This document shows, one piece after another, positions 3,049 to 31,082 of a DNA stretch of 64,000 nucleotides (its first letter is position 1; the number at the start of each line of letters is the position of its first letter). The stretch comes from Candidatus Saccharimonadales bacterium. Its GTDB lineage: Bacteria > Patescibacteriota > Saccharimonadia > QS-5-54-17. The stretch spans positions 518,038-582,037 of the forward strand of contig JBBDUI010000002.1 in the NCBI GenBank assembly GCA_040903985.1. The letters run 5' to 3'. The notes under the pieces were generated by a model. The model saw only the letters and a program-made list of their open reading frames with translations. It ran no database searches and was not told where the DNA came from. A program made the translations under genes and the position numbers.

Positions 3049-4890
3049 ATGAAACCACAACGAGTAAATATGAAGAAACAGAATCGCAACTTCGGTTTTC
3101 TGGCCGTAGTTATAGTCTTCGTCATGATAGTCTGGGCGCTATCTAATACGACTGAGAACACCGAGCAGGTTTCACTGTCCGAAGTGGTGCGTCAGGTCGA
3201 GGAGGGTAATATCGAGGAGATTATCGTTGAAGGCAGCCAGATTACAGCTGTACCGAACGATGAGAATGCCCCTCGCTTAGTGACATTTCGGGAGGATCCG
3301 GGGGTTAGCATCACTGAGTACGGCATCAATCCGACCGAGGTAGATATAACTACTAGTGACCCAGATGCTGGTGCTGGACGTTTTCTCGATATCTTCCTCA
3401 TCTCGTTCTTGCCTATTATGATCCTGGTTGGCTTCTTCTACTTTATGATGCGGCAGGCTCAGGGCCAGAATAACCAAGCCATGGGCTTTGGCAAGAGTAA
3501 GGCTAAAGTATACGGAAACGACAAAGAGAAGGTGACGTTCGGTGAGGTGGCTGGAGCGGAGGAATCGAAAGAGGAACTGGAAGAAATCGTCGAGTTTCTC
3601 AAAACGCCAAAGAAGTTTGCCGATGTCGGTGCTCGCATCCCTAAAGGCGTGCTGCTAATCGGAGCTCCAGGAACCGGAAAGACGATGTTAGCTCGAGCCG
3701 TTGCCGGTGAGGCCGGGGTGCCGTTTTTCAGTATCTCTGGAAGTGAGTTCGTCGAGATGTTTGTCGGTGTCGGTGCTTCCCGGGTACGCGATCTATTTAT
3801 GAAGGCCAAGAAGAATGCGCCTTGCATCATCTTCGTCGACGAGATCGATGCAGTCGGTCGCCGGCGGGGCTCTGGTCTTGGCGGTGGGCACGATGAGCGA
3901 GAGCAGACACTGAACCAGATATTAGTCGAAATGGATGGCTTCGAGCAGGGAACTAACGTGATCGTGATTGCGGCTACTAACCGGCCCGACGTACTAGATC
4001 CAGCGCTGCTACGCCCCGGCCGTTTCGACCGTCAGGTACGTATGGACCTACCCGATCGCAAAGATCGTGCCGCTATCTTAGATGTGCACCTGGAGAAGAA
4101 GCCGAAGGGCGATGATCTGCAGATCGACTCCCTAGCTGGTAAGACGGCCGGTATGAGTGGTGCCGATCTAGCTAACGTCGTTAATGAAGCTGCTATCTTG
4201 GCTGCTCGTAACAACCGGAAGAAAATCATTAACCAAGACCTAGACGATGCATTTGAGAAGGTCGCTATCGGGCCGGAGCGCAAGAGCAAGGTCATGAGCG
4301 ATGAGGAGAAGAAGCTGACCGCCTACCACGAAGGTGGACACGCCATCGTGGGGCACTTATTGGCTAATGCCGATCCGATTCACAAAGTAACTATTGTCAG
4401 TCGCGGTGGCGCTGGTGGAGTGACCTGGAGTTTGCCGACTGAGGACCGTAACTACCGCACTATCGCCGAGTTTAGAGATTCTATGGCAATGGCGATGGGT
4501 GGTCGAGTGGCCGAAGAGCTAGTCTTTGGACCAGATAAGGTGACGACCGGCGCTAGCAGTGACCTGCAGAACGCCACCGGTACGGCTCGTAGTATGGTAG
4601 TGAAGTATGGCATGAGTGATAAGCTGGCCAACCAGTATTTCGACTCTTCCGATCATTCAATCATCCTCGATCGTGAACTATCTCAGACCAAGGAGTATTC
4701 CGACGCTACGGCCGAGTTAATCGATGCTGAGATCACCCGCCTCCTCCAGGATGCTACCGAGCGCGCCCGTAAGGTAATCGAAGGCAACCGCAAAGCGCTT
4801 GATGCACTGGCCGCAGCACTGCTCGAGCAGGAGACTCTGAACGAAGACGAGGTTCGTGAAATCCTCAAAGACGCTCTCGCCCCTAAATAG
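3049..4890 (+). CDS. ftsH: ATP-dependent zinc metalloprotease FtsH
   Basis: N-terminal TM helix, Walker [12 protein letters not shown] second region, and HEGGH zinc motif. Confidence 0.95.
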
Positions 4891-4956
4891 TCGAGCCTTA
4901 AATCTATTTGTCCAAATGGGTCCAAGCTGACATAATCTATTCTCAGAGGAATAGAC

Positions 4957-6537
4957 ATGGCAAACAGCGTACTCAAACGTGCTAATAAATCACTAACTAT
5001 CGGTGTAGCTGCCTCGCTTTTAGCGGGCAGCTACTTCTTAAGCGGACTCTTCGGCTTACTTAGGGATCGTCTGCTGGCAGCGCGTTTCGGTCTCGAGGGC
5101 GAGCTCGATGCTTATTTCGCCGCCTTCTCATTACCTGATTTAATGTTTTTCATTCTCGTCTCCGGTGCCTTAACTGTCACTTTACTCCCAGTGTTAAACG
5201 AGCGGTTCGCTGGCGGGAATAAGAAGTCGGCCTGGGAGATATCATCTAGCATCACTAACCTCCTGGGGCTATTAACCTTAGTTGCTAGCGTCATCATCTT
5301 TGCCTTTGCTAATCAGCTGATGGGGCTAGTAGCACCGGGCTTCGATGCCGCGCAGCAGGAGGTGGCGGCTAACATCATGCGTATTTTAGCTCTTAACCCC
5401 TTCTTCTTCTCCCTCTCCAGCGTTTTCGGTACCATTCAGCAGGCTTATGGCCGGTTCTTTTTCTTCTCTCTAGCGCCGGTAATTTATAACCTCGGTATCA
5501 TCTTCGGTATCCTTTATTTGACCGACAGTTACGGTATCTACGGTGTAGCCTTTGGTGTTGTCATCGGTGCTATCGCTCAGTTAGGGATTCAGATTCTTGG
5601 GGTGGCCGGGCTGGGGTTCACCTACAAACCACAGATTTTCTGGAAGAATAAAGGTTTTCGAAAGGTACTACGCCTCATCATTCCCCGCTCAATCGATGAA
5701 GGCTTTGAGTATTTGATCGCTGTGATCGAGCGGGCCATCGCTTCTGGACTGGCGGTCGGTGCCATTGCAGCTTACCAGATTGCCTTTAACTTGAAGAACT
5801 ATCCGATCACGCTAATCGGTACCGCTATCGCGACGGCGGCCTTCCCGAAGATTTCCGAGCGAGCCCTGAGTAATCGGACCGACCTGCTAAAGAAGGAGAT
5901 CTTAGGTGTATTGCGAGCGATTCTCTGGTTTGCAGTCCCGGCTGCAGTGGTTGTGGTCTTCATGCGTGGCTACATCGTGCGTCTGCTTATCGGCTTTGGG
6001 GATATGACGGTTGCCAACGTGCTAGGTTGGTTTGCTGTGGCCATCATCTTCCAGTCGCTACTGCGGCTGGTCAACCGAGTCTTTTACGCTCAACAGGATA
6101 CTAAAACTCCGCTTTACGTCAGTGTGGTGGCCATCATCTTGAACGTTAGCCTAGCTATCTATCTAGCCAACATCTACGGTGTTAGCGGATTAGCCATGGC
6201 CCAGTCGATTGTCGCCATTGTCGAGGTGATAATTCTGATGACAATCCTCTCCCGCCGCCTCGGCAGCTTCATTACCCGTAAATTTATGCGACAGTTGAGC
6301 GGTATCATAGCAGCTTCGACCGTAATGGGTAGTGCGACTTACGGACTGGTCCGTTACGTCTTTCCACTACTAGCGGGAGAGACCGGCTTCTTCTCGCTAG
6401 TGCCGAAGTTTGCGACCATTAGTATCCTCAGTTTTGTCGTCTACATTCTCTGCGGTATCCAGCTGAAGCTGCCAGAAGCGCAGGCAGTAGCCAAACGGGT
6501 GCGCAGCTTCGTCCACCGTCGCGTACCGCTCGGTTAG
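4957..6537 (+). CDS. murJ: lipid II flippase MurJ (MviN family)
   Basis: About 14 TM segments and the characteristic MurJ N-terminus (RDRLLAARFGLEGELDAYFAAF). Confidence 0.85.
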   Translation: MANSVLKRANKSLTIGVAASLLAGSYFLSGLFGLLRDRLLAARFGLEGELDAYFAAFSLPDLMFFILVSGALTVTLLPVLNERFAGGNKKSAWEISSSITNLLGLLTLVASVIIFAFANQLMGLVAPGFDAAQQEVAANIMRILALNPFFFSLSSVFGTIQQAYGRFFFFSLAPVIYNLGIIFGILYLTDSYGIYGVAFGVVIGAIAQLGIQILGVAGLGFTYKPQIFWKNKGFRKVLRLIIPRSIDEGFEYLIAVIERAIASGLAVGAIAAYQIAFNLKNYPITLIGTAIATAAFPKISERALSNRTDLLKKEILGVLRAILWFAVPAAVVVVFMRGYIVRLLIGFGDMTVANVLGWFAVAIIFQSLLRLVNRVFYAQQDTKTPLYVSVVAIILNVSLAIYLANIYGVSGLAMAQSIVAIVEVIILMTILSRRLGSFITRKFMRQLSGIIAASTVMGSATYGLVRYVFPLLAGETGFFSLVPKFATISILSFVVYILCGIQLKLPEAQAVAKRVRSFVHRRVPLG

Positions 6538-6632
6538 TCGGCTGAGACTCGCGCACCTTTCACACCTTACCTGATTGATATAAAGTGGGTGAACAGAGAT
6601 ACGAGCTAATATTTTTTAGAAAGGCAGCTTAG

Positions 6633-8423
6633 ATGGCGAGTGGCGCAGGACCTAACATCCGCAACTTCTGTATCATAGCGCACATCGATCACGGCAAATC
6701 TACCTTAGCTGATCGGATGCTGGAGATTACCGGGACGGTCGAGCAGCGCAATATGCGGGCACAGTTGCTGGATCAGATGGATCTGGAGCGAGAGAAAGGG
6801 ATTACGATTAAACTCCAGCCGGTGCGAATGGAGTGGAAGGATTGCGAACTTAACTTAATCGATACCCCTGGACACGTCGACTTTAGTTATGAGGTGTCGC
6901 GTAGCCTGGCCGCCGTGGAGGGAGCAATTCTAGTGGTAGATGCAGCTCAAGGTATCGAGGCTCAGACGCTGGCTAACGTCTACCTGGCCATCGAGGCAGG
7001 CCTAGAGATAGTGCCGGTACTAAATAAGATCGACCTACCGGCGGCCCAGCCAGATAAGGTAGCCCGTGAGGTCAGTAATCTACTCGGCTGCCAGCCGGAA
7101 GACGTGCTGCGGGTATCGGCTAAGACCGGTGAAGGGGTGGCAGAAGTCTTAGATAAGCTAGTCGCGAGCGTACCGCCCCCGCAGGGCGATAGCGATGGTG
7201 ATTTACGTGCCCTAATTTTCGATTCAATCTATGATGAGTATCGTGGTGTCATTCTCTATGTTCGGATAGTCGACGGTACGCTTAGTTCCGGTGCTTCGAT
7301 CGCTCTGCTTGGCAGCGGTAAGGCTAGTGAGGCGATCGAGGTCGGTGCTTTCATGCCGGCACCGGTAGCCCGTGACCAGCTGTCTAGTGGTGAGATCGGC
7401 TATGTCACTACTAGCTACAAGTCGGTTCGGGAAGCCCGAGTGGGAGATACGCTTACCTTAGCGAAAGGTTCTCGAGCCAAGGCCTTGCCCGGGTATAAGA
7501 CTATCAAGCCATTTGTCTTCGCTGGTGTATTCCCCAGCTCCGGTGATCAGCATGCTCAGCTAAAGGATGCCCTCGATCGGCTGCAGCTCAATGATGCCGC
7601 ACTGCAGTATGATCCGGAGAATTCGCAAGTGCTGGGCTTCGGCTTTCGCATCGGCTTCTTAGGTTTATTACATCTAGAGATAGTTAAAGAGCGCCTAGAA
7701 CGGGAGTATGATCTCGATCTCATCATCACTAATCCTTCGACCGACTATCAGGTGAAGCTAAACAATGGAGAGGAGTTGATGATCCGGACCGCTATCGCCC
7801 TGCCCGACCCTTCGCGGGTGGCCAGTATCGCCGAGCCTTGGATTGGGGGCGAGGTGGTGGTCAAGAAAGAGTACCTGGGTAATGTTATCGGTTTAATTAA
7901 TGATATTCGTGGTGAACAGAAGCATCTCAGTTACCCAGAGACCGACACGGCTCTAATCCGTTTCGAGGCACCATTAGCTAACGTTCTAACCGACTTTTAC
8001 GATCGACTGAAGAGCACGACTAGTGGTTACGGCTCTTTCAGCTATGAGCCGATTGGCTATCGAGTGGAGAACTTAGTCCGGATCGACCTCCTGATTGGTG
8101 GTGAGCTGGTCGACTCGCTGAGTCAGATCGTTCATCGCAGCGAATCATATCGGGTCGGTAAATTGATCGTCGATAAACTTAAAGACGTCATCCCGCGTCA
8201 GCTGTATGAGGTAAGTTTGCAGGCCGCTATCGGCGGCAAGATTATCGCCCGGGAGAACATTAAGCCGATGGGGAAGAATGTGACGGCCAAGCTCTACGGC
8301 GGTGATGTAACTCGTAAGCAGAAGCTACTTAAGAAGCAGAAGGCAGGCAAGAAGCGTATGAAGATGATGGGTCAGGTCGAGATTCCGGCCGAGGCCTTTA
8401 CTGTACTGTTGAGTAAGGAGTAG
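6633..8423 (+). CDS. lepA: elongation factor 4 (LepA)
   Basis: GTPase G1 motif AHIDHGKST and DTPGHVDF; LepA-specific C-terminal domain. Confidence 0.95.
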   Translation: MASGAGPNIRNFCIIAHIDHGKSTLADRMLEITGTVEQRNMRAQLLDQMDLEREKGITIKLQPVRMEWKDCELNLIDTPGHVDFSYEVSRSLAAVEGAILVVDAAQGIEAQTLANVYLAIEAGLEIVPVLNKIDLPAAQPDKVAREVSNLLGCQPEDVLRVSAKTGEGVAEVLDKLVASVPPPQGDSDGDLRALIFDSIYDEYRGVILYVRIVDGTLSSGASIALLGSGKASEAIEVGAFMPAPVARDQLSSGEIGYVTTSYKSVREARVGDTLTLAKGSRAKALPGYKTIKPFVFAGVFPSSGDQHAQLKDALDRLQLNDAALQYDPENSQVLGFGFRIGFLGLLHLEIVKERLEREYDLDLIITNPSTDYQVKLNNGEELMIRTAIALPDPSRVASIAEPWIGGEVVVKKEYLGNVIGLINDIRGEQKHLSYPETDTALIRFEAPLANVLTDFYDRLKSTTSGYGSFSYEPIGYRVENLVRIDLLIGGELVDSLSQIVHRSESYRVGKLIVDKLKDVIPRQLYEVSLQAAIGGKIIARENIKPMGKNVTAKLYGGDVTRKQKLLKKQKAGKKRMKMMGQVEIPAEAFTVLLSKE

Positions 8424-8425
8424 AC

Positions 8426-9025
8426 ATGGCCGAAGAGCTCGAGGCGATCGATCAATACAAGCGAGAGATAGTGATCGATTATTGCCAGCCGATGCAGTTC
8501 GATCCTGAGGCGATGCAGTTTATAGTCGGCAGCGGAACGCCAGTAAGTATACCTCTGGACGGTTTCACTCGTAGTCCTGATCTCGATTTAACCTTAGCTA
8601 GTGAAGTGAGGTCAGATCCCGAAAAGGCGGACGAGCACTTAGTCTTAGATACTTTCGGAAACGTAGTGGTGTTGCCACCACTGCATGCCTGGCTGAGAGA
8701 ATTGAGTGCAGATGAGTCAAGAAAGGGGGCAGTTGAAAGAGATACCGCCAGCTTGATAGGCGAAGTTTACACTTTCTTAGTGCCAGACGATTCGGTTATT
8801 CCCGTGATGGGTTATGATCATATGTCGTTCGGGGCAGCTATTAATCAGCGCGCCAGCTTCTGTTTGATTACTTTAGGTGACTGCACCTGTCTCGGACCAG
8901 AAGGTAGCTCGAGGCCGGATGATGGTTATTATCAGGAGTACAGCTTTCATAATATATTTAATCAGGCGCAAATGATCAGTCTCTATGCTGGAGCCGGTTA
9001 TCTAAGTTGGCTGTCTCGACAATAA
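8426..9025 (+). CDS. hypothetical protein, start 3 nt after the lepA stop
   Basis: 199-aa ORF immediately downstream of lepA with no recognisable motif. Its coding status rests on length and its tight position in the operon. Confidence 0.45.
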   Translation: MAEELEAIDQYKREIVIDYCQPMQFDPEAMQFIVGSGTPVSIPLDGFTRSPDLDLTLASEVRSDPEKADEHLVLDTFGNVVVLPPLHAWLRELSADESRKGAVERDTASLIGEVYTFLVPDDSVIPVMGYDHMSFGAAINQRASFCLITLGDCTCLGPEGSSRPDDGYYQEYSFHNIFNQAQMISLYAGAGYLSWLSRQ

Positions 9026-9126
9026 CCTTGGTATAGTGAAAGCATGTATCCTACTACCCGCACTGAATCGCCAGCCTTCTCGATTAAAATGACGACACAT
9101 CACTCTAAATTAGTGGCGTTAAAAAC

Positions 9127-9684
9127 GTGAAAGGACAGCTATTTGTACTTTCCGGTCCTGGGGGGGTGGGCAAGACGACAGTGGCGTTAGCACTGCTCGA
9201 GCAGATACCGACTCTCGAGCGGGTAGTAACTATGACGACTAAGCAGCCACGCCCGAGTGAGGTAGATGAATCCGACTATTTCTTTGTTTCAGAGGCTGAG
9301 TTTAGGCGCCACGTCGCTAGCGGCGATTTTCTTGAGCATGCCGAAGTGTATGGTCAAGATTTCTACGGCACACCTAGAGCGGCCATCGATGCCGTGATCA
9401 ATGCGGGCAAGCAGGCACTGCTCGTCATCGATGTCCACGGTGGCGGGCAAGTTAAGGCCCACTATCCGAGCGCCCAACTCATCTTTCTTTTGCCGCCCTC
9501 ACTGGAGGAACTAAAACGTCGATTACTTACACGCGGAGAGGATGATGTAGCAGCTATTAATGCTCGGCTGCATGAAGCCACCCGGGAGATTGAGATCGGC
9601 CGAGTTAAATATGATCACTGTGTCGTTAACGATAAGCTCGAGAGGGCGGTAGCAGAGATAGAAGCGATAATTACTGCACTCTAG
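9127..9684 (+). CDS. gmk: guanylate kinase
   Basis: GTG start; P-loop SGPGGVGKTT; Gmk length and motifs. Confidence 0.85.
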   Translation: MKGQLFVLSGPGGVGKTTVALALLEQIPTLERVVTMTTKQPRPSEVDESDYFFVSEAEFRRHVASGDFLEHAEVYGQDFYGTPRAAIDAVINAGKQALLVIDVHGGGQVKAHYPSAQLIFLLPPSLEELKRRLLTRGEDDVAAINARLHEATREIEIGRVKYDHCVVNDKLERAVAEIEAIITAL

Positions 9685-9707
9685 CACTCTTGACTACCGA
9701 GTGCTAA
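9681..9707. promoter_or_regulatory. CIRCE operator (HrcA binding site) cTAGCACTC-N9-GAGTGCTAA, overlapping the gmk stop codon
   Basis: Near-perfect match to the CIRCE consensus TTAGCACTC-N9-GAGTGCTAA, located 59 bp upstream of hrcA. Confidence 0.85.
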
Positions 9708-9718
9708 ATTCGTATGAT
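9690..9718 (+). promoter_or_regulatory. sigma70-like promoter of the hrcA operon (TTGACT-17 bp-TATGAT), embedded in the CIRCE
   Basis: -35 TTGACT at 9690-9695, a 17-nt spacer, and -10 TATGAT at 9713-9718. Confidence 0.6.
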
Positions 9719-9726
9719 GAGAGTAT

Positions 9727-9753
9727 CAGCACTAATCATTAGCGAGTGCCAAA
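9727..9753. promoter_or_regulatory. second, degenerate CIRCE-like inverted repeat cAGCACTa-N9-GAGTGCcaa
   Basis: Partial CIRCE match between the -10 element and the hrcA GTG start. Confidence 0.45.
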
Positions 9754-9765
9754 GAGGTACCTATC

Positions 9766-10467
9766 GTGACAACGCGCCAAGCCGAAGTTCTCAAGACTAT
9801 TGTCGAGTATTATGTCCAGACCGCTAACCCGGTTGGCTCTAAATCGCTGGCGCAACAGTTTAGTGTCTCCTCAGCCACGATTCGAGCTGAGATGGCCGAA
9901 CTGGAGCGACTCGACCTCATTACGCACCCTCACACCAGTGCTGGGCGGATTCCTACTGATGCCGGCTATCGGCACTATGTAGAATCACTGGCTCGACCCA
10001 GCCAGAAACTTGACAGCACTAGTCGCTTGCGCCGGGCAATTGAACGTCGGGTTAAGAGTGCCGGCTCTCCCCAAGCCGCAATCAAGATAGCTGTCGATTC
10101 TCTCACTCAGACTACACACAATATCGCCTTTGCGACCATGGGGGTCGCTATCTATACTAAGGGCTTCTCACAGCTCTTTGCACGCCCTGAGTTCGACGAG
10201 AATGCAGCCGATATCGCCGGGCTGCTCGATAATCTCGAGTTGTGGTTAAGTGAGACCAATATCGAGGAAGGGATAGCGACCTATATCGGTGAGGAGAACG
10301 CTATCGGTAAATCGAGTGGCTGCTCTGTCATAGTTGCTCGGTACGATTCACCCTTTTCTGAAGAGAGCTATATCGGTGTCATCGGTCCGACGCGGCAAAG
10401 TTACGGCCAGGTCATGCGGGTCGTAGAGTATACAGCTAACACATTACAGGAGGTATTAAGTGAGTAA
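9766..10467 (+). CDS. hrcA: heat-inducible transcription repressor HrcA (short form, 233 aa)
   Basis: N-terminal wHTH region RQAEVLKTIVEYYVQTANPVGSKSLA...SSATIRAEMAELE typical of HrcA. Followed by grpE-dnaK-dnaJ. Confidence 0.8.
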   Translation: MTTRQAEVLKTIVEYYVQTANPVGSKSLAQQFSVSSATIRAEMAELERLDLITHPHTSAGRIPTDAGYRHYVESLARPSQKLDSTSRLRRAIERRVKSAGSPQAAIKIAVDSLTQTTHNIAFATMGVAIYTKGFSQLFARPEFDENAADIAGLLDNLELWLSETNIEEGIATYIGEENAIGKSSGCSVIVARYDSPFSEESYIGVIGPTRQSYGQVMRVVEYTANTLQEVLSE

Positions 10468-20182: not shown

Positions 20183-20611
20183 ATGGATAAAGTCACAATC
20201 GGCCGCTGGGTATTTATAGATCTCCCGGCCCTGGATTTAGAAAACGTACGAGCTAAAGTTGATACCGGTGCCTACCGGAGTAGTTTGCACTGTGAATTTA
20301 TCGAGGAGTTTGAGCGTAATGGCGAGATTTTCCTTGCTATCCAGACTACTGATATGAGAGGTGCACCAATTGGTGACCACCCGGTAGCACTGAAGCAAGA
20401 AGGTATTGTGGCGGTACGTAGCTCAAACGGTGAGGTACAAAGGCGACCGGTAGTACTACTCCCGGTGGAGCTCGGTGGACGAGAGTATGTGACGGAATTT
20501 ACCTTAACTAATAGACAAGATATGAAATTCCCGATACTCTTAGGAAGGAAGTTCCTCAAGGAGTCCTTTGTGGTAGATGTATCACTCGATGACCCAACTG
20601 AAGAAGAGTAA
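20183..20611 (+). CDS. retropepsin-like aspartic protease, RimK-associated (COG4067 / DUF785 type)
   Basis: DTGA active-site motif (VDTGAYRSSLH), a 142-aa size, and a position directly upstream of rimK. Confidence 0.7.
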   Translation: MDKVTIGRWVFIDLPALDLENVRAKVDTGAYRSSLHCEFIEEFERNGEIFLAIQTTDMRGAPIGDHPVALKQEGIVAVRSSNGEVQRRPVVLLPVELGGREYVTEFTLTNRQDMKFPILLGRKFLKESFVVDVSLDDPTEEE

Positions 20612-20654
20612 CTCTGAATTAACCGTATAACCAACACTGTAAGGAGATACCATA

Positions 20655-21560
20655 GTGCGTATTGCAATCCTGTCGCGGGGCGCCGCGAACTATTCTACTC
20701 GAGTCCTGGTAAGTGCCGCTGAGAAAGCCGGCCATGAAGCCGTGGTGCTCGACTACTTGAAATGTTACATGGAGGTGCAGCAGAATCGTCCCAGTGTCCA
20801 CTTTAACGGTGAGCGCCTGGGCAAAATCGACGCCATCATACCGCGTATCGGTCACTCGCATACCGGATATGGCTCGGCTGTAGTGCGACAGTTCGAGATG
20901 ATGAACGTCTACACCACTGCAAAATCGATTGCGATCGTGCGTTCTCGCGATAAGCTACGCAGTTTGCAGCTGCTGGGACGATCTGATATCGACATCCCGA
21001 AGACTGCTTTTGCCTCTCAGACTACCGATATCGCCGATCTGATCGAATTAGTAGGTGGAGCGCCCTTGATTGTGAAGCTGATTGAGAGTACCCATGGCGA
21101 AGGAGTAGTGCTGGCTCCCACCAAAAAGGAAGCTAAATCGATCGTGCAGGCCTTCTACAGTATCGGTCAGCCAATCTTAGTCCAAGAATTTATTGAAGAA
21201 GCCGGCGGAGCCGATATTCGCGCCTTTGTTGTCGGTGGACGCGTGGTCGGAGCGATGAAGCGCCAAGGCCTAGATGAAGAATTTCGTTCGAATCTACACC
21301 TCGGTGGTACTGGCGAAAAAGTTCTTCTGACCGATGCCGAGAAGAAAATTGCCGTTAAATCCGCTAAGAAGCTCGGCCTCGATATCGCCGGTGTGGATAT
21401 TCTACAGTCTGCGCGTGGACCTCTCGTTATCGAAGTTAACTCCTCCCCGGGACTGGAAGGAATCGAAGGTGCTACCGAACGGGATATAGCGAGTAAGATC
21501 ATCAAGTATGTTGAGATAAATGCCGGCCGCAAACCGAAGAAAGATAAGGTCGGAGCATAG
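20655..21560 (+). CDS. rimK: ribosomal protein S6 glutamate ligase RimK (ATP-grasp)
   Basis: GTG start 8 nt after an AAGGAG RBS; RimK N-terminus MRIAILSR...; ATP-grasp motifs. Confidence 0.85.
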   Translation: MRIAILSRGAANYSTRVLVSAAEKAGHEAVVLDYLKCYMEVQQNRPSVHFNGERLGKIDAIIPRIGHSHTGYGSAVVRQFEMMNVYTTAKSIAIVRSRDKLRSLQLLGRSDIDIPKTAFASQTTDIADLIELVGGAPLIVKLIESTHGEGVVLAPTKKEAKSIVQAFYSIGQPILVQEFIEEAGGADIRAFVVGGRVVGAMKRQGLDEEFRSNLHLGGTGEKVLLTDAEKKIAVKSAKKLGLDIAGVDILQSARGPLVIEVNSSPGLEGIEGATERDIASKIIKYVEINAGRKPKKDKVGA

Positions 21561-21565
21561 GGCTG

Positions 21566-22012
21566 ATGTGGCGGCGCTTCACTATTCCGCTACTTATTCT
21601 CGGGTGCATCGCACTACTCGCATTAATCCTGACCCGTATTGAGGCGGATGACAGAGTACGAGTTGATTTCGACGCCGTATCCGTAGCGGTCGATGTAGCC
21701 GATACGCCAGAACTGCGTCAACAAGGCCTATCTGGCAGTGAGGCTTTAGATGAAGACGAGGGGATGCTGTTTGTATTTAACGAACCGAATAAGGTTTCTT
21801 TCCACATGCTAGATATGAACTTTGCTCTAGATATCATCTGGCTGGATGAAGAGCTCAAAGTAGTCGATATCGCTGCTGGCATCACACCTGAAACCTACCC
21901 TGAATCCTTTAAACCTATCACCCCGGCTAAGTATGTGCTGGAAGTGCACTCCGGCTTTGCCGCGCAGCATGGTATTAGTCTCGGTAGTCAGGCCACAATA
22001 GCTGGGCTGTAG
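21566..22012 (+). CDS. DUF192 (COG1430) domain protein with N-terminal TM anchor
   Basis: GMLFVF...HMLDMNFALDIIWLD pattern of DUF192. Confidence 0.6.
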   Translation: MWRRFTIPLLILGCIALLALILTRIEADDRVRVDFDAVSVAVDVADTPELRQQGLSGSEALDEDEGMLFVFNEPNKVSFHMLDMNFALDIIWLDEELKVVDIAAGITPETYPESFKPITPAKYVLEVHSGFAAQHGISLGSQATIAGL

Positions 22013-22051
22013 TGGCGCGCCGCAAAACATAAGTGCTATGATAAGCACATC

Positions 22052-22543
22052 ATGAATGTCGACTTTCTCATCGCCGCCGCCGTAATCGGTATCAGTGCTT
22101 TAGCACTACATTTCAAAAGTCACGTTAAGTTCGTCGCTATGGGTGTGTTTATCGGTTTGGCCTTACTGCAGATCGTCTCCCTCGAAGGGCGCTTCGAGTC
22201 TGAGTTGGTAGAGAGCGCCGTAGCGGCTGTGCTCTTAGTAGTGCCAGCTTTGATATTAGGGGTTAACCACAGTGTGGACAAGCGTAAAAAGGGCAGTGTG
22301 GTTTGGAAGATAGTGTTTATACTGGTGTTTACTCTTTTCTTTCTCTCGAGCGTGGTCCAGGTGTTGCCTCCTGAGACTCAGCAGGCGATTATGGACCGTT
22401 CGATTATCGGTTGGCAGATCTTAGATAACTACGTATGGTTTACTTTTGCCGCCGCCATTTTGATTCTCATAGATAGCATCCAGCATCGCAGTTATGCCGA
22501 AAAAGCTAAAAAACGTAAGTCGAAGCTCAAATCCAGCCGCTAG
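22052..22543 (+). CDS. hypothetical integral membrane protein (4 predicted TM helices, basic C-terminus)
   Basis: ORF length, hydrophobic periodicity, and a KKRKSKLK tail. Confidence 0.5.
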   Translation: MNVDFLIAAAVIGISALALHFKSHVKFVAMGVFIGLALLQIVSLEGRFESELVESAVAAVLLVVPALILGVNHSVDKRKKGSVVWKIVFILVFTLFFLSSVVQVLPPETQQAIMDRSIIGWQILDNYVWFTFAAAILILIDSIQHRSYAEKAKKRKSKLKSSR

Positions 22544-22583
22544 CAGTTGCTATGTTTTAGTATAAATACTACAATTTAGCAAG

Positions 22584-23168
22584 ATGCAGATTGTGAGTTT
22601 TACCCCAGCGAAAAGGTTAGTGCAGCGAATGGCTGTTGAGGTGTGCGAACCTTACAGGGTACGGCCTGAAGCGGAGTTAGCTGCCGCAGCAGAAGAGGTA
22701 AAGAACCGATGGGTTATACGTAACCAAGAGTTATGGGAGTGTGAGATAGCTGCGCTTCAAAGGGTGATAGCTTATAAAAAATGGCTCATCGATGATAGGC
22801 CTGTGGTGCCCATCGATAATGCCCACCACGGAGTTAGGCTTACCGAACTACGGGGTGATGCGATCGTAACTTTTGCTCAACAAGTAGGCAGTAACGAGGC
22901 GCGCCTCTACGTGACTGAAGATATGCGCTATCCTATGTATACTCAAGTATTCGCACTGCGATCACATAGTGGTCGAATCCTCAGCCGCCCAGTTTGGGCC
23001 GGTGCTCGCCCTATCGAGGAAAACGATGTTAGAGCTGCCGTATTGGGAGTTTCAGTAGATACTCATGTGCAGAGTAAGGGTCAGTCCGGAGAGGGTAGGA
23101 CGACCCCGTCATATGTCTCGGAGTTGGCCGATGTTCTCGAGACTCACTTCGGTCCTTTGCCCGAATAG
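22584..23168 (+). CDS. hypothetical protein
   Basis: 194-aa ORF with coding-like composition and no recognisable motif. Confidence 0.45.
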   Translation: MQIVSFTPAKRLVQRMAVEVCEPYRVRPEAELAAAAEEVKNRWVIRNQELWECEIAALQRVIAYKKWLIDDRPVVPIDNAHHGVRLTELRGDAIVTFAQQVGSNEARLYVTEDMRYPMYTQVFALRSHSGRILSRPVWAGARPIEENDVRAAVLGVSVDTHVQSKGQSGEGRTTPSYVSELADVLETHFGPLPE

Positions 23169-23238
23169 TAGCCTCATATGAGCGTTGCTATCGCTAACTT
23201 TACAGTTTAGAATAGACAATGTTCTAACTATTTTTTAG

Positions 23239-23315
23239 GGGCCTGTAGCTCAGTCGGTTAGAGCAGCGGCCTTTTAAGCCGCGTGTCGTGGGTTCGAATC
23301 CCACCAGGCCCTCCA
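23239..23315 (+). tRNA. tRNA-Lys (anticodon TTT)
   Basis: Acceptor gggcctg/caggccc, anticodon loop ctTTTaa, T-arm gtgggttcgaatcccac, and an encoded CCA. A TTGCTA-17-TAGAAT promoter lies upstream. Confidence 0.85.
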
Positions 23316-23321
23316 TATAAA
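23295..23321 (+). repeat. 27-bp direct repeat, copy 1 (tRNA-Lys 3' end plus 6 downstream nt)
   Basis: cgaatcccaccaggccctccatataaa is repeated exactly at 23458-23484. Confidence 0.8.
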
Positions 23322-23355
23322 TACCTCGGCCATCGTGCCGGGGTATTTGTATGGA
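23312..23355 (+). terminator. long hairpin starting inside the tRNA-Lys 3' CCA end (tccatataaatacctcgg / ccggggtatttgtatgga)
   Basis: About 18-bp stem with loop ccatcgtg and no U-tract. A paralogous hairpin follows tRNA-Lys(CTT) at 31035. Confidence 0.4.
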
Positions 23356-23457
23356 ATGAGTTTGATGCCGGGATTCGAACCCGAAAGGGCATAAACTACC
23401 AGTGGTAGTTTATGGATACATTGCTTGGCCGAGCGAGAAACGTATTTCGAGCGAGCA

Positions 23458-23484
23458 TAATAACACACGAATCCCACCAGGCCC
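23458..23484 (+). repeat. 27-bp direct repeat, copy 2 (duplicated tRNA-Lys 3' end)
   Basis: Exact copy of 23295-23321. The intervening 136 bp contain an inverted tRNA-like T-arm (cgggattcgaacccg) and an 11-bp palindrome (cataaactacca g tggtagtttatg). Confidence 0.8.
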
Positions 23485-23506
23485 TCCATATAAACATGGG
23501 TCAGAA

Positions 23507-23965
23507 CTATGCTTTTTGATAAGTACCCACTAGCTCGGTTCGAGTTAATACGTGACCACTTAGTGCATCTTCGACATCTTCTTTGTCTGCATCTTCGGGC
23601 AAGTCGAGTTTTGAGTCTAGTGCATACAGACGGAAGAAATAGCGATGTTCACCAGTTGGCGGGCAGGGACCGGTGTAGGCTTTCTCGCCTCGGCCATTTA
23701 GACCTTGGACGGCGAACGGCGGAACGGAACCCTCGGCAATTTCAGTGGTTGTTGGTGGGATGTTCCAAACTACCCAATGATCGAAGGTGTGCCCTGGTCC
23801 ATTTGGATCGGTAGCGGCATCAGGGTCATCACAGATTAGTACCAGACTTTGCGCTTCAGTAGGCGCATCGCTAATTTGAAGGGGAGGATTATGATTGCTA
23901 CCTTCACAGGTGTAGAGCTTATCGATAGTCTCGCCATCGTTAAAAACTGGGCTAGAAAGCTTCAT
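23507..23965 (-). CDS. PEBP family protein (YbhB/YbcL, Raf-kinase-inhibitor-like)
   Basis: Motifs DDPDAATDPNGPGHTFDHWVVWNIP and GPCPPTGEHRYFFRLYALD are typical of bacterial PEBP. Confidence 0.75.
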   Translation of the reverse strand: MKLSSPVFNDGETIDKLYTCEGSNHNPPLQISDAPTEAQSLVLICDDPDAATDPNGPGHTFDHWVVWNIPPTTTEIAEGSVPPFAVQGLNGRGEKAYTGPCPPTGEHRYFFRLYALDSKLDLPEDADKEDVEDALSGHVLTRTELVGTYQKA

Positions 23966-24101: not shown

Positions 24102-24205
24102 CGTCAGACTAAACCTTCAGCTTCCGTAAAACAGCGGAAGCTGTTTTACTTTCAGCTTACGGTTTGTCTTCCTTATCCAAACGAAACAGTAACGTTTCGT
24201 TTGGG
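24102..24205 (+). repeat. tRNA-linked structured repeat, copy B
   Basis: Begins cgtcagactaaacc. Hairpin cagcttccg/cggaagctg is followed by ttttacttt. A second hairpin is ccaaacgaaac-agtaac-gtttcgtttgg. Confidence 0.75.
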
Positions 24206-24253
24206 GGTGCGGCTTTATACTTTATACTGAATACGTAATACTAATTACCATGT

Positions 24254-24344: not shown

Positions 24345-25304
24345 TTATGTGGTTCTTAGCTCCCACTTCGGTGGGTAAAAATAGTCGATAGGTTCGGCAT
24401 TAGGCTTGTGGCGCGCTTTAATCCGAATTCTGTTACTGGATAATTTGGGGACTGCTTCGCGGCAGTATTTGTCTAGCTCACAAAATAGTCCCTGGCAGTC
24501 TATGGCATGGAGCTTCCGACCATGAAGGCCATCAAATTCAAGTCCGAGTCGACTAAACTCATCGTCCTGTCTCTCTACCATTTGCAGAATGATTTCTTCT
24601 GGCGAGAGGTCGCCACGAGACTTGAATGCTTTGTTAATTCCCCGTAGTGCGCCAGGCCCGGCTCGTGTAAATGAGTTTTCGCTGAAATTAATGTAAGGCG
24701 TATAGTTGAGATCTATTGTGAGCTGATAGGCCATGAAATCTCCGATTAAAGGGTAGCTGCGCAAGAGCTGGTAGACGTCCCCTAAGCTAATAGCAGCAAG
24801 AAGTTTCTTATCTAGATGATCGAGAATGAACATGTGCCTGAAGAGAGCGATATGATTCAGATACTTTTCGCTATGCCCGTAGGCCGTATTAGCGCAGAGG
24901 ATAAAAGCGCCAGTATAGAGTTTACCGTTTATCTCTTTAACGTGGGCTAGCGCTCGGGTGAGAATATCATCTTCTAGGTCGGTAATGAGCGGCTGACGAC
25001 CAAGGTAGTTTGTGATCTCATCCCAAGTCTCGGGTCGGCTAAAGAACCGAAAAGCTATCACTCGAAACAGTACATCTGATGGGTCCGCCTGCGGGTCTAT
25101 GTAGGCTATATTACGAATTAGATATTGCGACACGCGGTCGCTGGCTCGGAAGACGTTGCAGAACTTATAGGTAGCTAGGATAGGGTCATCGGTCCAGGGA
25201 CCGGGTTCTCCGCGGGCGCGCCGCTGGAAGATAGCTTGACGCTCGGCAGCATAGTACCAGTAGAGGTCGTAGATTTCGGTCCGAGGTATGGGTGTTTGAA
25301 TCAT
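24345..25304 (-). CDS. conserved hypothetical protein (319 aa), Trp/Tyr-rich N-terminus; family not confidently recognised
   Basis: Long ORF with good coding composition and no P-loop. N-terminal block IYDLYWYYAAERQAIFQRR..GEPGPWTDDPIL..YKFCNVFRASDRVSQ. See findings. Confidence 0.6.
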   Translation of the reverse strand: MIQTPIPRTEIYDLYWYYAAERQAIFQRRARGEPGPWTDDPILATYKFCNVFRASDRVSQYLIRNIAYIDPQADPSDVLFRVIAFRFFSRPETWDEITNYLGRQPLITDLEDDILTRALAHVKEINGKLYTGAFILCANTAYGHSEKYLNHIALFRHMFILDHLDKKLLAAISLGDVYQLLRSYPLIGDFMAYQLTIDLNYTPYINFSENSFTRAGPGALRGINKAFKSRGDLSPEEIILQMVERQDDEFSRLGLEFDGLHGRKLHAIDCQGLFCELDKYCREAVPKLSSNRIRIKARHKPNAEPIDYFYPPKWELRTT

Positions 25305-26416: not shown

Positions 26417-26494
26417 GGCGGGTGTAGCTCAGTTGGTTAGAGCGCCTGGTTGTGGTCTAGGAGGCCGTGGGTTCAAGTCCCATCACTCGCCCCA
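26417..26494 (+). tRNA. tRNA-His (anticodon GTG) with genome-encoded G-1
   Basis: Extra 5' G pairs with the C73 discriminator. Anticodon loop ttGTGgt; T-arm gtgggttcaagtcccat; encoded CCA. Confidence 0.85.
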
Positions 26495-26605
26495 AGAAAA
26501 GTGTCCTCGTGCAAGCGGGGGCATTTTTCTTGGGATCTACTCAGACGTTTTGAATGTAGTGGTGCTAATTGCTCATTATTACCTTAGGCCTGTATAGTTT
26601 AGATC

Positions 26606-29056: not shown

Positions 29057-29160
29057 CGTCAGACTAAACCTACAGCTTCCTCTAAAACAGCGGAAGCTGT
29101 TTTACTTTCAGCTTCCGGTTTGTCTTCCTTTTCCAGCTAAAACAGTATCGTTTTAGCTGG
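29057..29160 (+). repeat. tRNA-linked structured repeat, copy C (second hairpin with fully compensatory stem changes)
   Basis: Begins cgtcagactaaacc. Hairpin cagcttcc/ggaagctg is followed by ttttacttt. The second hairpin ccagctaaaac-agtat-cgttttagctgg keeps the pairing with a different sequence. Confidence 0.75.
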
Positions 29161-30963: not shown

Positions 30964-31040
30964 GGGCCATTAGCTCAGTTGGTTAGAGCATCTGCCTCTT
31001 AAGCAGAGTGTCCCGGGTTCGAGTCCCGGATGGCCCTCCA
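30964..31040 (+). tRNA. tRNA-Lys (anticodon CTT)
   Basis: Acceptor gggccat/atggccc, anticodon loop ctCTTaa, T-arm ccgggttcgagtcccgg, and an encoded CCA. Confidence 0.85.
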
Positions 31041-31082
31041 TACAAATACCCCGACACAAAAGCCGGGGTATTTGTATGGAGG
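31035..31082 (+). terminator. 19-bp perfect hairpin incorporating the tRNA-Lys(CTT) 3' CCA end (cctccatacaaataccccg / cggggtatttgtatggagg)
   Basis: Arms are nearly identical to the hairpin after tRNA-Lys(TTT) at 23312; the loop differs (acacaaaagc). Confidence 0.45.

Follow-up and report, generated by a model that had tools for sequence, protein, structure and literature searches.

The last part of a lysine tRNA gene in this Saccharimonadales chromosome recurs a short distance downstream, and the question raised by the locus was whether the DNA between the two copies is the footprint of an element that integrated at the tRNA. Repeats of tRNA ends are known from integrated DNA, and Saccharibacteria have tiny genomes with few recognised mobile elements. 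A search of the literature on tRNA-Lys integration in Saccharibacteria returned nothing specific. The locus was explored in the window, i.e., the whole 64-kb stretch of DNA that was analysed, and in related genomes, the loci of which are denoted by L and a number.

The tRNA-Lys(UUU) locus of the window

The tRNA-Lys(UUU) gene was intact, with an encoded CCA, at 23239–23315 on the plus strand (ARAGORN; Rfam tRNA model, 76.2 bits). Repeat and pattern searches located the exact 27-nt direct repeat CGAATCCCACCAGGCCCTCCATATAAA at 23295–23321 and at 23468–23494, both on the plus strand. The first copy comprised tRNA positions 56–76, from C56 of the T-loop to the CCA, together with a 6-nt flank (TATAAA). 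The second copy was an orphan with the same tRNA positions and the same flank, and ATAATAACACA stood just before it. Hence, a complete tRNA-Lys(UUU) was found at one end, and a copy of its 3' part from the T-loop, in the same orientation, was found at the other. The identity of the copies broke sharply between T55 and C56 of the T-loop. The repeat had two matches in the window even when three mismatches were allowed, and none in 100 dinucleotide-preserving shuffles, which confirmed the predicted duplication of the last 21 nt of the tRNA plus 6 nt of flank. The dimensions given in the original prediction required correction. The start-to-start distance was 173 bp and not 163 bp, the enclosed segment was 146 bp (23322–23467) and not 136 bp, each value having been 10 too small, and the proposed end at 23484 fell inside the second copy, which ends at 23494.

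The enclosed segment (plus strand) had no credible ORF, in agreement with the earlier statement that it is too small for an integrase. It began with a terminator-type hairpin at 23312–23355 on the plus strand, which was identified by folding and had a 19-bp stem that starts within the tRNA, where TCCA pairs with TGGA. This hairpin matched the terminator parts of Rfam sRNA models (PsrR1, E = 0.005) and was homologous to the terminator of tRNA-Lys(CUU) at 31037–31080 in the same window, with a BLAST match of 19/19 to 31062–31080. The body after the terminator was 112 nt in length (23356–23467, plus strand). An inverted T-arm-like sequence had been predicted there and was present as the 15-mer CGGGATTCGAACCCG at 23369–23383 (plus strand; inverted-repeat search, BLAST and local alignment). 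Its 13-nt core (23370–23382) was perfectly complementary to the tRNA T-arm at 23290–23302, its first 8 nt were also complementary to the start of the second copy, and it was identical at 15 of 16 positions to the antisense T-arm of tRNA-Lys(CUU). When the body was compared with the antisense tRNA by local alignment, the T-arm piece was the only match (p = 0.013). The palindrome reported as 11 bp was also present, and the inverted-repeat search gave it a larger size, namely a hairpin of 12 + 1 + 12 nt at 23390–23414 (no strand assigned) with the cap CCAGTGG at 23399–23405. Further downstream, at 23431–23455 on the plus strand, the direct repeat GAGCGAG (23431–23437 and 23449–23455) flanked a small hairpin, GAAA-CGTA-TTTC (23437–23448). 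The ends of the body were the 8-nt inverted sequences GGGATTCG and CGAATCCC. The region folded far better than its shuffles (z = -7.2). The terminator ended in GTATTTGTATGGA; an empty-site junction would join the terminator or the tRNA end to CATGGGTCAGAAC, and a circle or tandem junction would join CATAATAACACA to CGAATCCC…TATAAATACCTCGG.

BLAST found no second copy of the body in the 64-kb window. No Rfam 15 family was assigned to the window insert or to those of L018, L046 and L047; the matches were the tRNA itself and sub-threshold terminator-like models. The recombinase that had been proposed as a search target was not found with Pfam in the window, where 54 of the 56 non-overlapping ORFs of at least 140 aa were scanned and precomputed domains for further window genes were also used; a serine integrase was found in a relative (L017/L064, see below). 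The segment was followed by a convergent gene for a PEBP-family protein (23507–23965, minus strand; Pfam PF01161, 3e-41), the stop codon of which lay 12 nt from the second copy. The GC content was even across the locus. The neighbours in the window were housekeeping genes for glycogen metabolism, RimK, a MurA/AroA-family enzyme, FemAB, DnaK/DnaJ, glycolysis and tRNA synthetases. A phage or plasmid origin of the window was considered and rejected, given a megablast search against phage records without a match, these housekeeping neighbours and the assignment to a Saccharimonadales chromosome. In viral contigs, a candidate attP was sought with the 21-mer, which had no match, and with the 18-mer, which had one chance match in a coding region.

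Inserts behind tRNA genes of other Saccharibacteria

The 21-nt tRNA end was scanned in one genome per species. The scan gave 19 loci, all of them in Saccharibacteria and mostly true tRNA-Lys(UUU) or tRNA-Lys(CUU) genes, and further loci were added from a metagenome scan and from FolD neighbours. A common layout was observed at at least 14 Saccharibacteria tRNA-Lys loci and at one tRNA-Arg locus. The tRNA was followed by a terminator hairpin that starts from the NCCA, then by a gene-less and hairpin-rich body of 93–151 nt, and finally by a cognate copy of the 3' end that starts in the T-loop. The window had the layout of this group, as judged against L012, L018, L019 (Lys and Arg), L022, L046, L047, L079 and the decayed cases. 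The orientation of the insert was constant, and inserts were found at both tRNA-Lys isoacceptors and at one tRNA-Arg. A blind test was carried out on the 83 tRNAs of the fetched loci. Seven tRNA-Lys loci, the window among them, and one tRNA-Arg(UCG) had a copy downstream, at offsets of +136 to +169 from the CCA; the two other matches were adjacent genuine tRNA-Arg genes. L079 was fetched after the blind test and added one more intact copy. Intact terminal copies (at least 15/15 nt) thus stood 136–169 nt past the CCA in the window, L012, L018, L019, L022, L046, L047 and L079 and behind the tRNA-Arg(UCG). In the metagenomes, no two 18-mers were found 145–175 nt apart, the real spacings there being 132 and 139 nt, and 29 of the 32 loci from a plain 18-mer scan were chance matches within ORFs.

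In every instance, the copy began within one and the same 5-nt stretch of the T-loop. The copy started at T55/C56 in the window, L018, L073 and L079, and at A59/T60 in L012, L019, L022, L046, L047, L015 and the Arg case. The 3' end of the repeat was located at the CCA in several instances, 2–3 nt beyond it in L012 and L022, 6 nt beyond it in the window and 40 nt beyond it in L018, where the extension took in the whole terminator. The copy was always cognate to the adjacent tRNA, and the tRNA-Arg locus carried the Arg-type copy TCCCTCCGGGCGTACCA. The terminal copy was intact in most instances, although the bodies had diverged beyond alignability.

Empty, decayed and tandem states of the site were also found. 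The empty sites recommended as a check of the original prediction exist as single-copy tRNA-Lys 3' ends in seven relatives' loci (L006, L008, L009, L014, L020, L033 and L072) and at the tRNA-Lys(CUU) of the window genome itself. The latter gene (30964–31040) and its homologous terminator occupy 30964–31080 on the plus strand, without an insert or a second copy, and provide an empty comparison site. Decayed terminal copies were observed in L015 (14/17), L023 (10 nt), L073 (11 nt), L064 (9 nt), L024 and L011. L021 indicates a tandem array, because it opens with an orphan copy, preceded by ATAATAGA (in the window, ATAATAACACA), after which come a terminator and a further body. The gene order tRNA-Lys(UUU) … PEBP–tRNA-Gly–tRNA-Arg(UCU) was kept in the relatives L008 and L013. 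The DNA between tRNA-Lys(UUU) and the PEBP gene was 0.15 kb in the window, 1.3 kb in L013 and 3.3 kb in L008, and the cargo in L013 and L008 was unrelated and without an integrase. In L012, the whole module of tRNA, insert and copy was inverted relative to the RimK cluster when compared with the window. A purely structural role as a terminator had been named as the alternative to integration. It may hold for part of the segment, the first hairpin of which looks like an ordinary intrinsic terminator.

The inserts are best described as several sequence families that appear mutually unalignable, because leave-one-out profiles recovered one set only and the L018 and L073 bodies, clearly related to each other, stood apart. 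Leave-one-out nhmmer recovered the bodies of L019K, L046, L023, L015, L064, L012 and the Arg-linked L019R (E values of 2e-10 to 5e-4), and it missed those of the window, L018, L022, L024, L047, L073 and L079. An apparent membership of the window insert in one family (nhmmer, 7e-16) was rejected because the window had been in the training alignment, and the match was removed by the leave-one-out procedure. The only sequence feature that linked the window body to other bodies was the hairpin capped by CCAGTGG, a 7-mer with a background rate of 0.055 per kb. This hairpin was common to the window, L018, L073 and L079, at a similar position and with different stems, and these are the same four in which the copy starts at T55/C56. 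The first body family had a bulged hairpin, CTC-RCA-GRAR…YUYC-GAG. Its 4-bp inner helix was 95% paired, with AU/GC swaps at two pairs, and this level of covariation was reached by just 17–18 of 500 shuffles in an alignment of 10 sequences, for which the statistics are modest. The outer stem of the same hairpin was rejected, as it was merely 55% paired in the alignment used. The region 23431–23455 of the window aligned with this conserved bulged hairpin but without the outer stem of the other inserts. An antisense T-arm piece was present near the left end of most bodies, and the sense sequence GGGTTCG was present in many. Pairing of the internal GTGGG with the terminal CCCAC into a long-range T-stem was also rejected, as no co-variation was observed in the tRNA-Arg case. 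Local alignment detected no resemblance to tRNA positions 1–40 beyond chance in any body.

An integrase island at tRNA-Lys(CUU) of a relative

In L017, an ORF on the opposite strand ran antisense through the 3' end of a tRNA-Lys(CUU) that carries the identical 21-mer. The last codons of the ORF were …DIWRAWWDSNPRHAD before the stop, and it had the zinc-ribbon motif of large serine recombinases. Homologues of the L017 recombinase carried the Resolvase, Recombinase and Zn_ribbon_recom domains, and homologous recombinases overlapped tRNA-Lys, tRNA-Pro or tRNA-Gln in other contigs of the CPR (candidate phyla radiation). The same species on longer contigs, L064, was reached via the FolD protein. 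The gene was complete there and encoded a 540-aa large serine integrase (phrog_95, 3.5e-67). It was followed by a replication-initiator-like gene and small ORFs, and the island was approximately 5.6 kb in length. The far end of the island was CTCCACTATGGCCCTCCAAAA, which has GGCCCTCCAAA in common with the tRNA end, and after it came a terminator hairpin, a typical body and then ATCCCACCA. In L064, the tRNA-Lys was thus followed by the integrase island, a displaced short tRNA end, the terminator, the insert and a decayed copy. Because a serine-integrase island occupies the tRNA-Lys end in L017/L064, this tRNA 3' end is shown to be a live attachment site in the Saccharibacteria group.

The occupied site that had been called for was thus found at the same tRNA end, but with a repeat of its own and with the insert next to it. 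The island repeat GGCCCTCCAAA was shorter and located at the acceptor/CCA end, and the insert was distal to the island and not enclosed by it. The L064 serine integrase was rejected as the maker of the inserts, since no long tRNA repeat was found within 10 kb and the insert lay outside the island. No body-like sequence was detected inside the L064 island, and no relatives of the L064 integrase were detected in viral contigs.

Origin of the inserts

The sharp boundary in the T-loop, the cognate copy, the empty, occupied, decayed and tandem states of the site and the integrase island at the same tRNA all point to an integration footprint. That the segment is the att-type footprint of a site-specific insertion, now a non-autonomous mini-element or a remnant, is the reading we adopt, with the chances for and against it evenly balanced. 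The duplication is inferred to have been made by a site-specific recombinase. The intact end of tRNA-Lys(UUU) would play an attL-like role and the orphan copy of positions 56–76 an attR-like role. The segment would be immobile by itself, either as the leftover of an integrative element or as a non-autonomous mini-element, and the latter would resemble a very small cis-mobilizable element in needing a recombinase provided in trans. The first hairpin would now work as the terminator of the tRNA, and a former attachment region is the probable source of the remaining hairpins and T-arm-derived pieces, as its recombinase-binding or structural parts.

The original prediction of a scar or a miniature element at tRNA-Lys was partly supported, as regards the footprint, given the empty sites, the integrase island and the T-loop boundary. 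A one-off scar is probably not correct, as the layout recurs in many Saccharibacteria, the integrase island has a repeat of its own and stands beside an insert, and no recombinase was found among the window ORFs scanned. Because similar small inserts recur behind the lysine tRNA genes of relatives, the insert is most likely a miniature remnant or hitch-hiker of tRNA-integrating DNA and not a one-off accident. Moreover, a defined miniature element or module explains the recurrent gene-less layout better than debris of random deletions would, since the same 93–151 nt layout, a single orientation and conserved hairpins recur. Narrow sizes, constant orientation and hairpins with compensatory changes would not be expected from the random decay of integrated elements. 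A more specific proposal is that the inserts are an undescribed class of gene-less, hairpin-rich elements of approximately 110–150 nt that home to the 3' flank of tRNA-Lys, and now and then of tRNA-Arg, in Saccharibacteria, with each insertion ending in a fresh copy from the T-loop to the CCA. Rather than passive scars, such inserts would be tRNA-linked structured RNAs or active, non-autonomous elements that target tRNAs; this proposal is tentative, and we regard it as doubtful rather than probable.

Confidence in the att-type footprint goes no further than an even balance for several reasons. No recombinase is tied to the repeats, and none was found in the insert or among the window ORFs scanned. 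The units, besides being very small, have a uniform size and a conserved structure, and the terminator after the first copy looks native. A circle of approximately 173 bp is a poor recombination substrate, which counts against integration. The failure of the profiles from other bodies to detect the window body also counts against the footprint reading. Furthermore, the addition of a body plus copy behind a native terminator fits at least as well as a tRNA end borne by an element, because the terminator after the first copy is homologous to that of the insert-free tRNA-Lys(CUU).

The T-loop is a canonical position for integration at tRNA and tmRNA genes (PMC3146451), and C56, at which the window repeat starts, is the position reported for the Dehalococcoides islands at tmRNA. 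The ssrA islands of Dehalococcoides have a 20-bp repeat of the tmRNA 3' end, tandem arrays and integrase-less units (PMC3146451), and by analogy they appear to be the closest described case that was found. The likeness extends to an intact RNA gene at one end with an orphan 3'-end copy of approximately 20 nt at the other, to the tandem arrays and to units without integration genes, and the 540-aa serine integrase of L064 lies beside the RNA gene on the opposite strand, as DsiB does. In contrast to those islands, the window segment is 146 bp, gene-less and without an integrase nearby, the inserts vary little in size and have hairpins that are conserved, and the L064 island has a shorter repeat at the acceptor/CCA end that does not enclose the insert. 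Cis-mobilizable elements (CIMEs) belong to streptococcal ICE families (PMC3146451, PMC5704250). Like them, the window segment is att-flanked and encodes neither integration nor transfer, and the arrangement in L064 resembles their tandem accretion with an autonomous element at the same site. However, CIMEs span kilobases and can be recognised as having arisen by deletion from a known ICE, whereas the unit described here is approximately 150 bp, no parent element with the same ends was found and its mobilisation is putative. The insert also resembles MITE and REP-like repeats, being small, gene-less, hairpin-rich, downstream of a gene and bounded by 8-nt inverted ends. Unlike a MITE, it was present in a single copy in the 64-kb window and had no short target-site duplication; its flanking repeat is 27 nt and contains a specific tRNA 3' end, and the inverted ends are themselves T-arm sequence. 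The first 44 nt (23312–23355) are a long GC-rich hairpin of the intrinsic-terminator type, and other tRNAs in these genomes have such hairpins, but a terminator does not explain the remaining 112 nt and the second copy of the tRNA end.

For the window itself the meaning is modest, as the tRNA is intact and the insert encodes nothing. The recurrent gene-less insert and the serine-integrase island beside one of them mark tRNA-Lys as an insertion hot spot in Saccharibacteria, and what is unusual is the recurrence of a gene-less, hairpin-rich unit of approximately 150 bp. Proof of mobility would make the inserts the smallest att-flanked units described and offer a way into gene flow in these uncultured episymbionts. 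Should they turn out to be a conserved RNA or DNA structure, a new tRNA-linked non-coding element would have been found.

The latter case, a functional structured module tied to tRNA-Lys, is unlikely in our estimate, but it accounts for several of the observations. The module would be a small RNA, transcribed with the tRNA or separately in the direction of the tRNA, or a DNA structure, and selection would act on its hairpins and tRNA-like 3' end, e.g., through a role in processing, stability or base pairing to the T-arm of the tRNA. The retention of the layout across diverged Saccharibacteria, the narrow size range and the constant orientation argue for such a module, as does a terminal copy that stays mostly intact despite unalignable bodies. 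The paired inner helix of the first family, with its swaps and few equally high shuffles, is in line with this, and two G-U pairs fall on the tRNA strand. In addition, the antisense T-arm piece tracks the local T-loop variant (ATTCGAA in the window and CTCGAA in L073), and the 3' end of L018 can form an acceptor/T-arm minihelix. However, the module is missing in many relatives and at the paralogous tRNA-Lys of the same genome, is decayed in several loci and sits behind a strong terminator. No Rfam family was found beyond the terminator-like matches, the bodies belong to families that are not alignable with each other, and the covariation statistics on 10 sequences are modest. In the tRNA-Arg case, the internal GTGGG stays Lys-like, whereas the terminal copy is Arg-like, without co-variation of a helix.

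Local duplication without a dedicated recombinase, or spread driven by homology, was judged quite unlikely. The copy could have been made by template switching during replication or by fold-back synthesis at the palindromic T-arm and terminator hairpins. Alternatively, homologous or short-homology recombination, e.g., after natural transformation, could have used the tRNA and the copy as homology arms, with the insert as a passenger. A terminal copy that is always cognate to the adjacent tRNA, Arg included, would follow from either route, and repeats that run 0, 2–3, 6 and 40 nt past the CCA are expected if homology, and not a fixed cut, sets the limits. The native look of the terminator after the first copy and the inverted module of L012 relative to its RimK cluster are also consistent with this origin, and the bodies hold inverted and direct T-arm pieces, as fold-back synthesis would give. 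However, the 5' limit of the copy lies within the same 5 nt of the T-loop everywhere, the bodies are not built from nearby sequence, and hairpins conserved within a family suggest a defined element rather than filler DNA.

The structured module and the local duplication fit the observations better than the two remaining origins. It is very improbable that the copy descends from a second tRNA-Lys gene, an old tandem duplicate that decayed to a pseudogene and kept its 3' end. Several bodies have GGGTTCG, the 5' half of the T-stem, upstream of the copy, L024 keeps 14 of 14 nt of tRNA positions 44–57, and L018 and L073 keep the acceptor-like strand GGGCCTG. However, no body resembles tRNA positions 1–40, and the window body holds only the antisense T-arm piece, with p = 0.44 for its local alignment to sense positions 1–61. 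The Rfam tRNA model detected none of the bodies tested (window, L018, L046 and L047), and the sharp boundary in the T-loop with perfect identity downstream is unlike the decay of a pseudogene.

In retroviral minus-strand DNA synthesis, 18 nt of the tRNA primer are copied, up to position 58. An origin of the inserts as cDNA of a small structured RNA, reverse-transcribed with a tRNA primer and leaving the order of tRNA, cDNA and an 18-nt copy of positions 59–76, would suit the start at A59 in seven instances and the end exactly at the CCA in four to five, but it is hardly credible. A mature tRNA could not template the gene flank, and yet the repeat extends beyond the CCA into that flank in the window, L012, L018 and L022; moreover, the copies of the window, L018, L073 and L079 begin at T55/C56. 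No reverse transcriptase was seen in any locus examined, and a native-looking terminator separates the tRNA from the body.

Terminator hairpins and the insert behind tRNA-Lys

The terminator hairpins of tRNAs in these genomes began within the tRNA itself (window 23312-23355, 26491-26535 and 31037-31080; comparison locus L019, 4209-4253). The discriminator base and CCA were paired with a downstream TGGN, as TCCA/TGGA for Lys, ACCA/TGGT for Arg and CCCA/TGGG for His; hence, the hairpin tracked the discriminator base.

An insert linked to tRNA-Arg(UCG) was found at L019 4136-4377, where the tRNA was followed by the terminator, the body (the part of the insert after the terminator hairpin) and a copy, 17 nt long, of the end of this tRNA-Arg. 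The bulged hairpin of the Lys-linked inserts also occurred in this body, and the internal GTGGG piece remained Lys-like. The orientation of the module formed by tRNA-Lys(UUU), the insert and the copy of the tRNA 3' end was compared between comparison locus L012 (2052-4776) and the window (20183-23494), with the conserved RimB-like/RimK/DUF192 gene cluster as the reference. Relative to this cluster, the module was in the opposite orientation in L012. Furthermore, a contig from an independent assembly (L003, run SRR27977661) ended within tRNA-Lys at window position 23285, 10 nt short of the repeat start. This break may reflect a tRNA common to co-occurring strains or heterogeneity at the tRNA-Lys site.

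A second repeat module on tRNA 3' flanks

Immediately behind the CCA of tRNA-Met, tRNA-Gly and tRNA-Arg(CCG), the window carried copies of a repeat (1333-1440, 24102-24208 and 29057-29160) that was rich in hairpins and about 105 nt long (CGTCAGACTAAACCTTCAGCTTCCG…), with a column identity of 89% among the copies. A copy of the tRNA 3' end was absent from the end of all three window copies. Besides the insert behind tRNA-Lys, the repeat represents another type of small repeated module located on tRNA 3' flanks of this genome.

Serine recombinases reading into tRNA genes

Large serine recombinases whose last codons overlapped a tRNA gene in antisense at its 3' end were observed in CPR bacteria (L017 7178-7918, minus strand; L064 8335-9957, plus strand; L060 64-1392; L058 359-1420; L061 93-1055), so that the attachment site lay within the integrase reading frame. 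The overlapped tRNAs were of the types Lys, Lys, Pro and Gln. In L064, an island of about 5.6 kb (about 4340-9992) adjoined tRNA-Lys(CUU). It encoded a serine integrase of 540 aa and a replication-initiator-like protein (phrog_9773, 8e-29), together with small ORFs of unknown function. Its distal boundary was GGCCCTCCAAA, and the island was absent from the related genomes L072, L073 and L079. Moreover, a T-arm-like sequence (GGTCGTGGGTTCGAATCCCACCCCCGGAGCA) adjoined the end of a truncated recombinase homologue in L062 (10140-10200, minus strand). ARAGORN called no tRNA at this sequence, which may represent a fragment of a tRNA or tmRNA at the end of an island.

A phage-type gene in the window

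The 5-hmdU DNA kinase enzyme type is known from phage DNA hypermodification. The window gene at 24345-25304 (minus strand) matched PF18723, the helical domain of this kinase, over its full length (1.9e-97) and also matched the phage family phrog_2396. The gene was located on the Saccharimonadales chromosome between tRNA-Arg(UCU) on one side and a cupin gene on the other.
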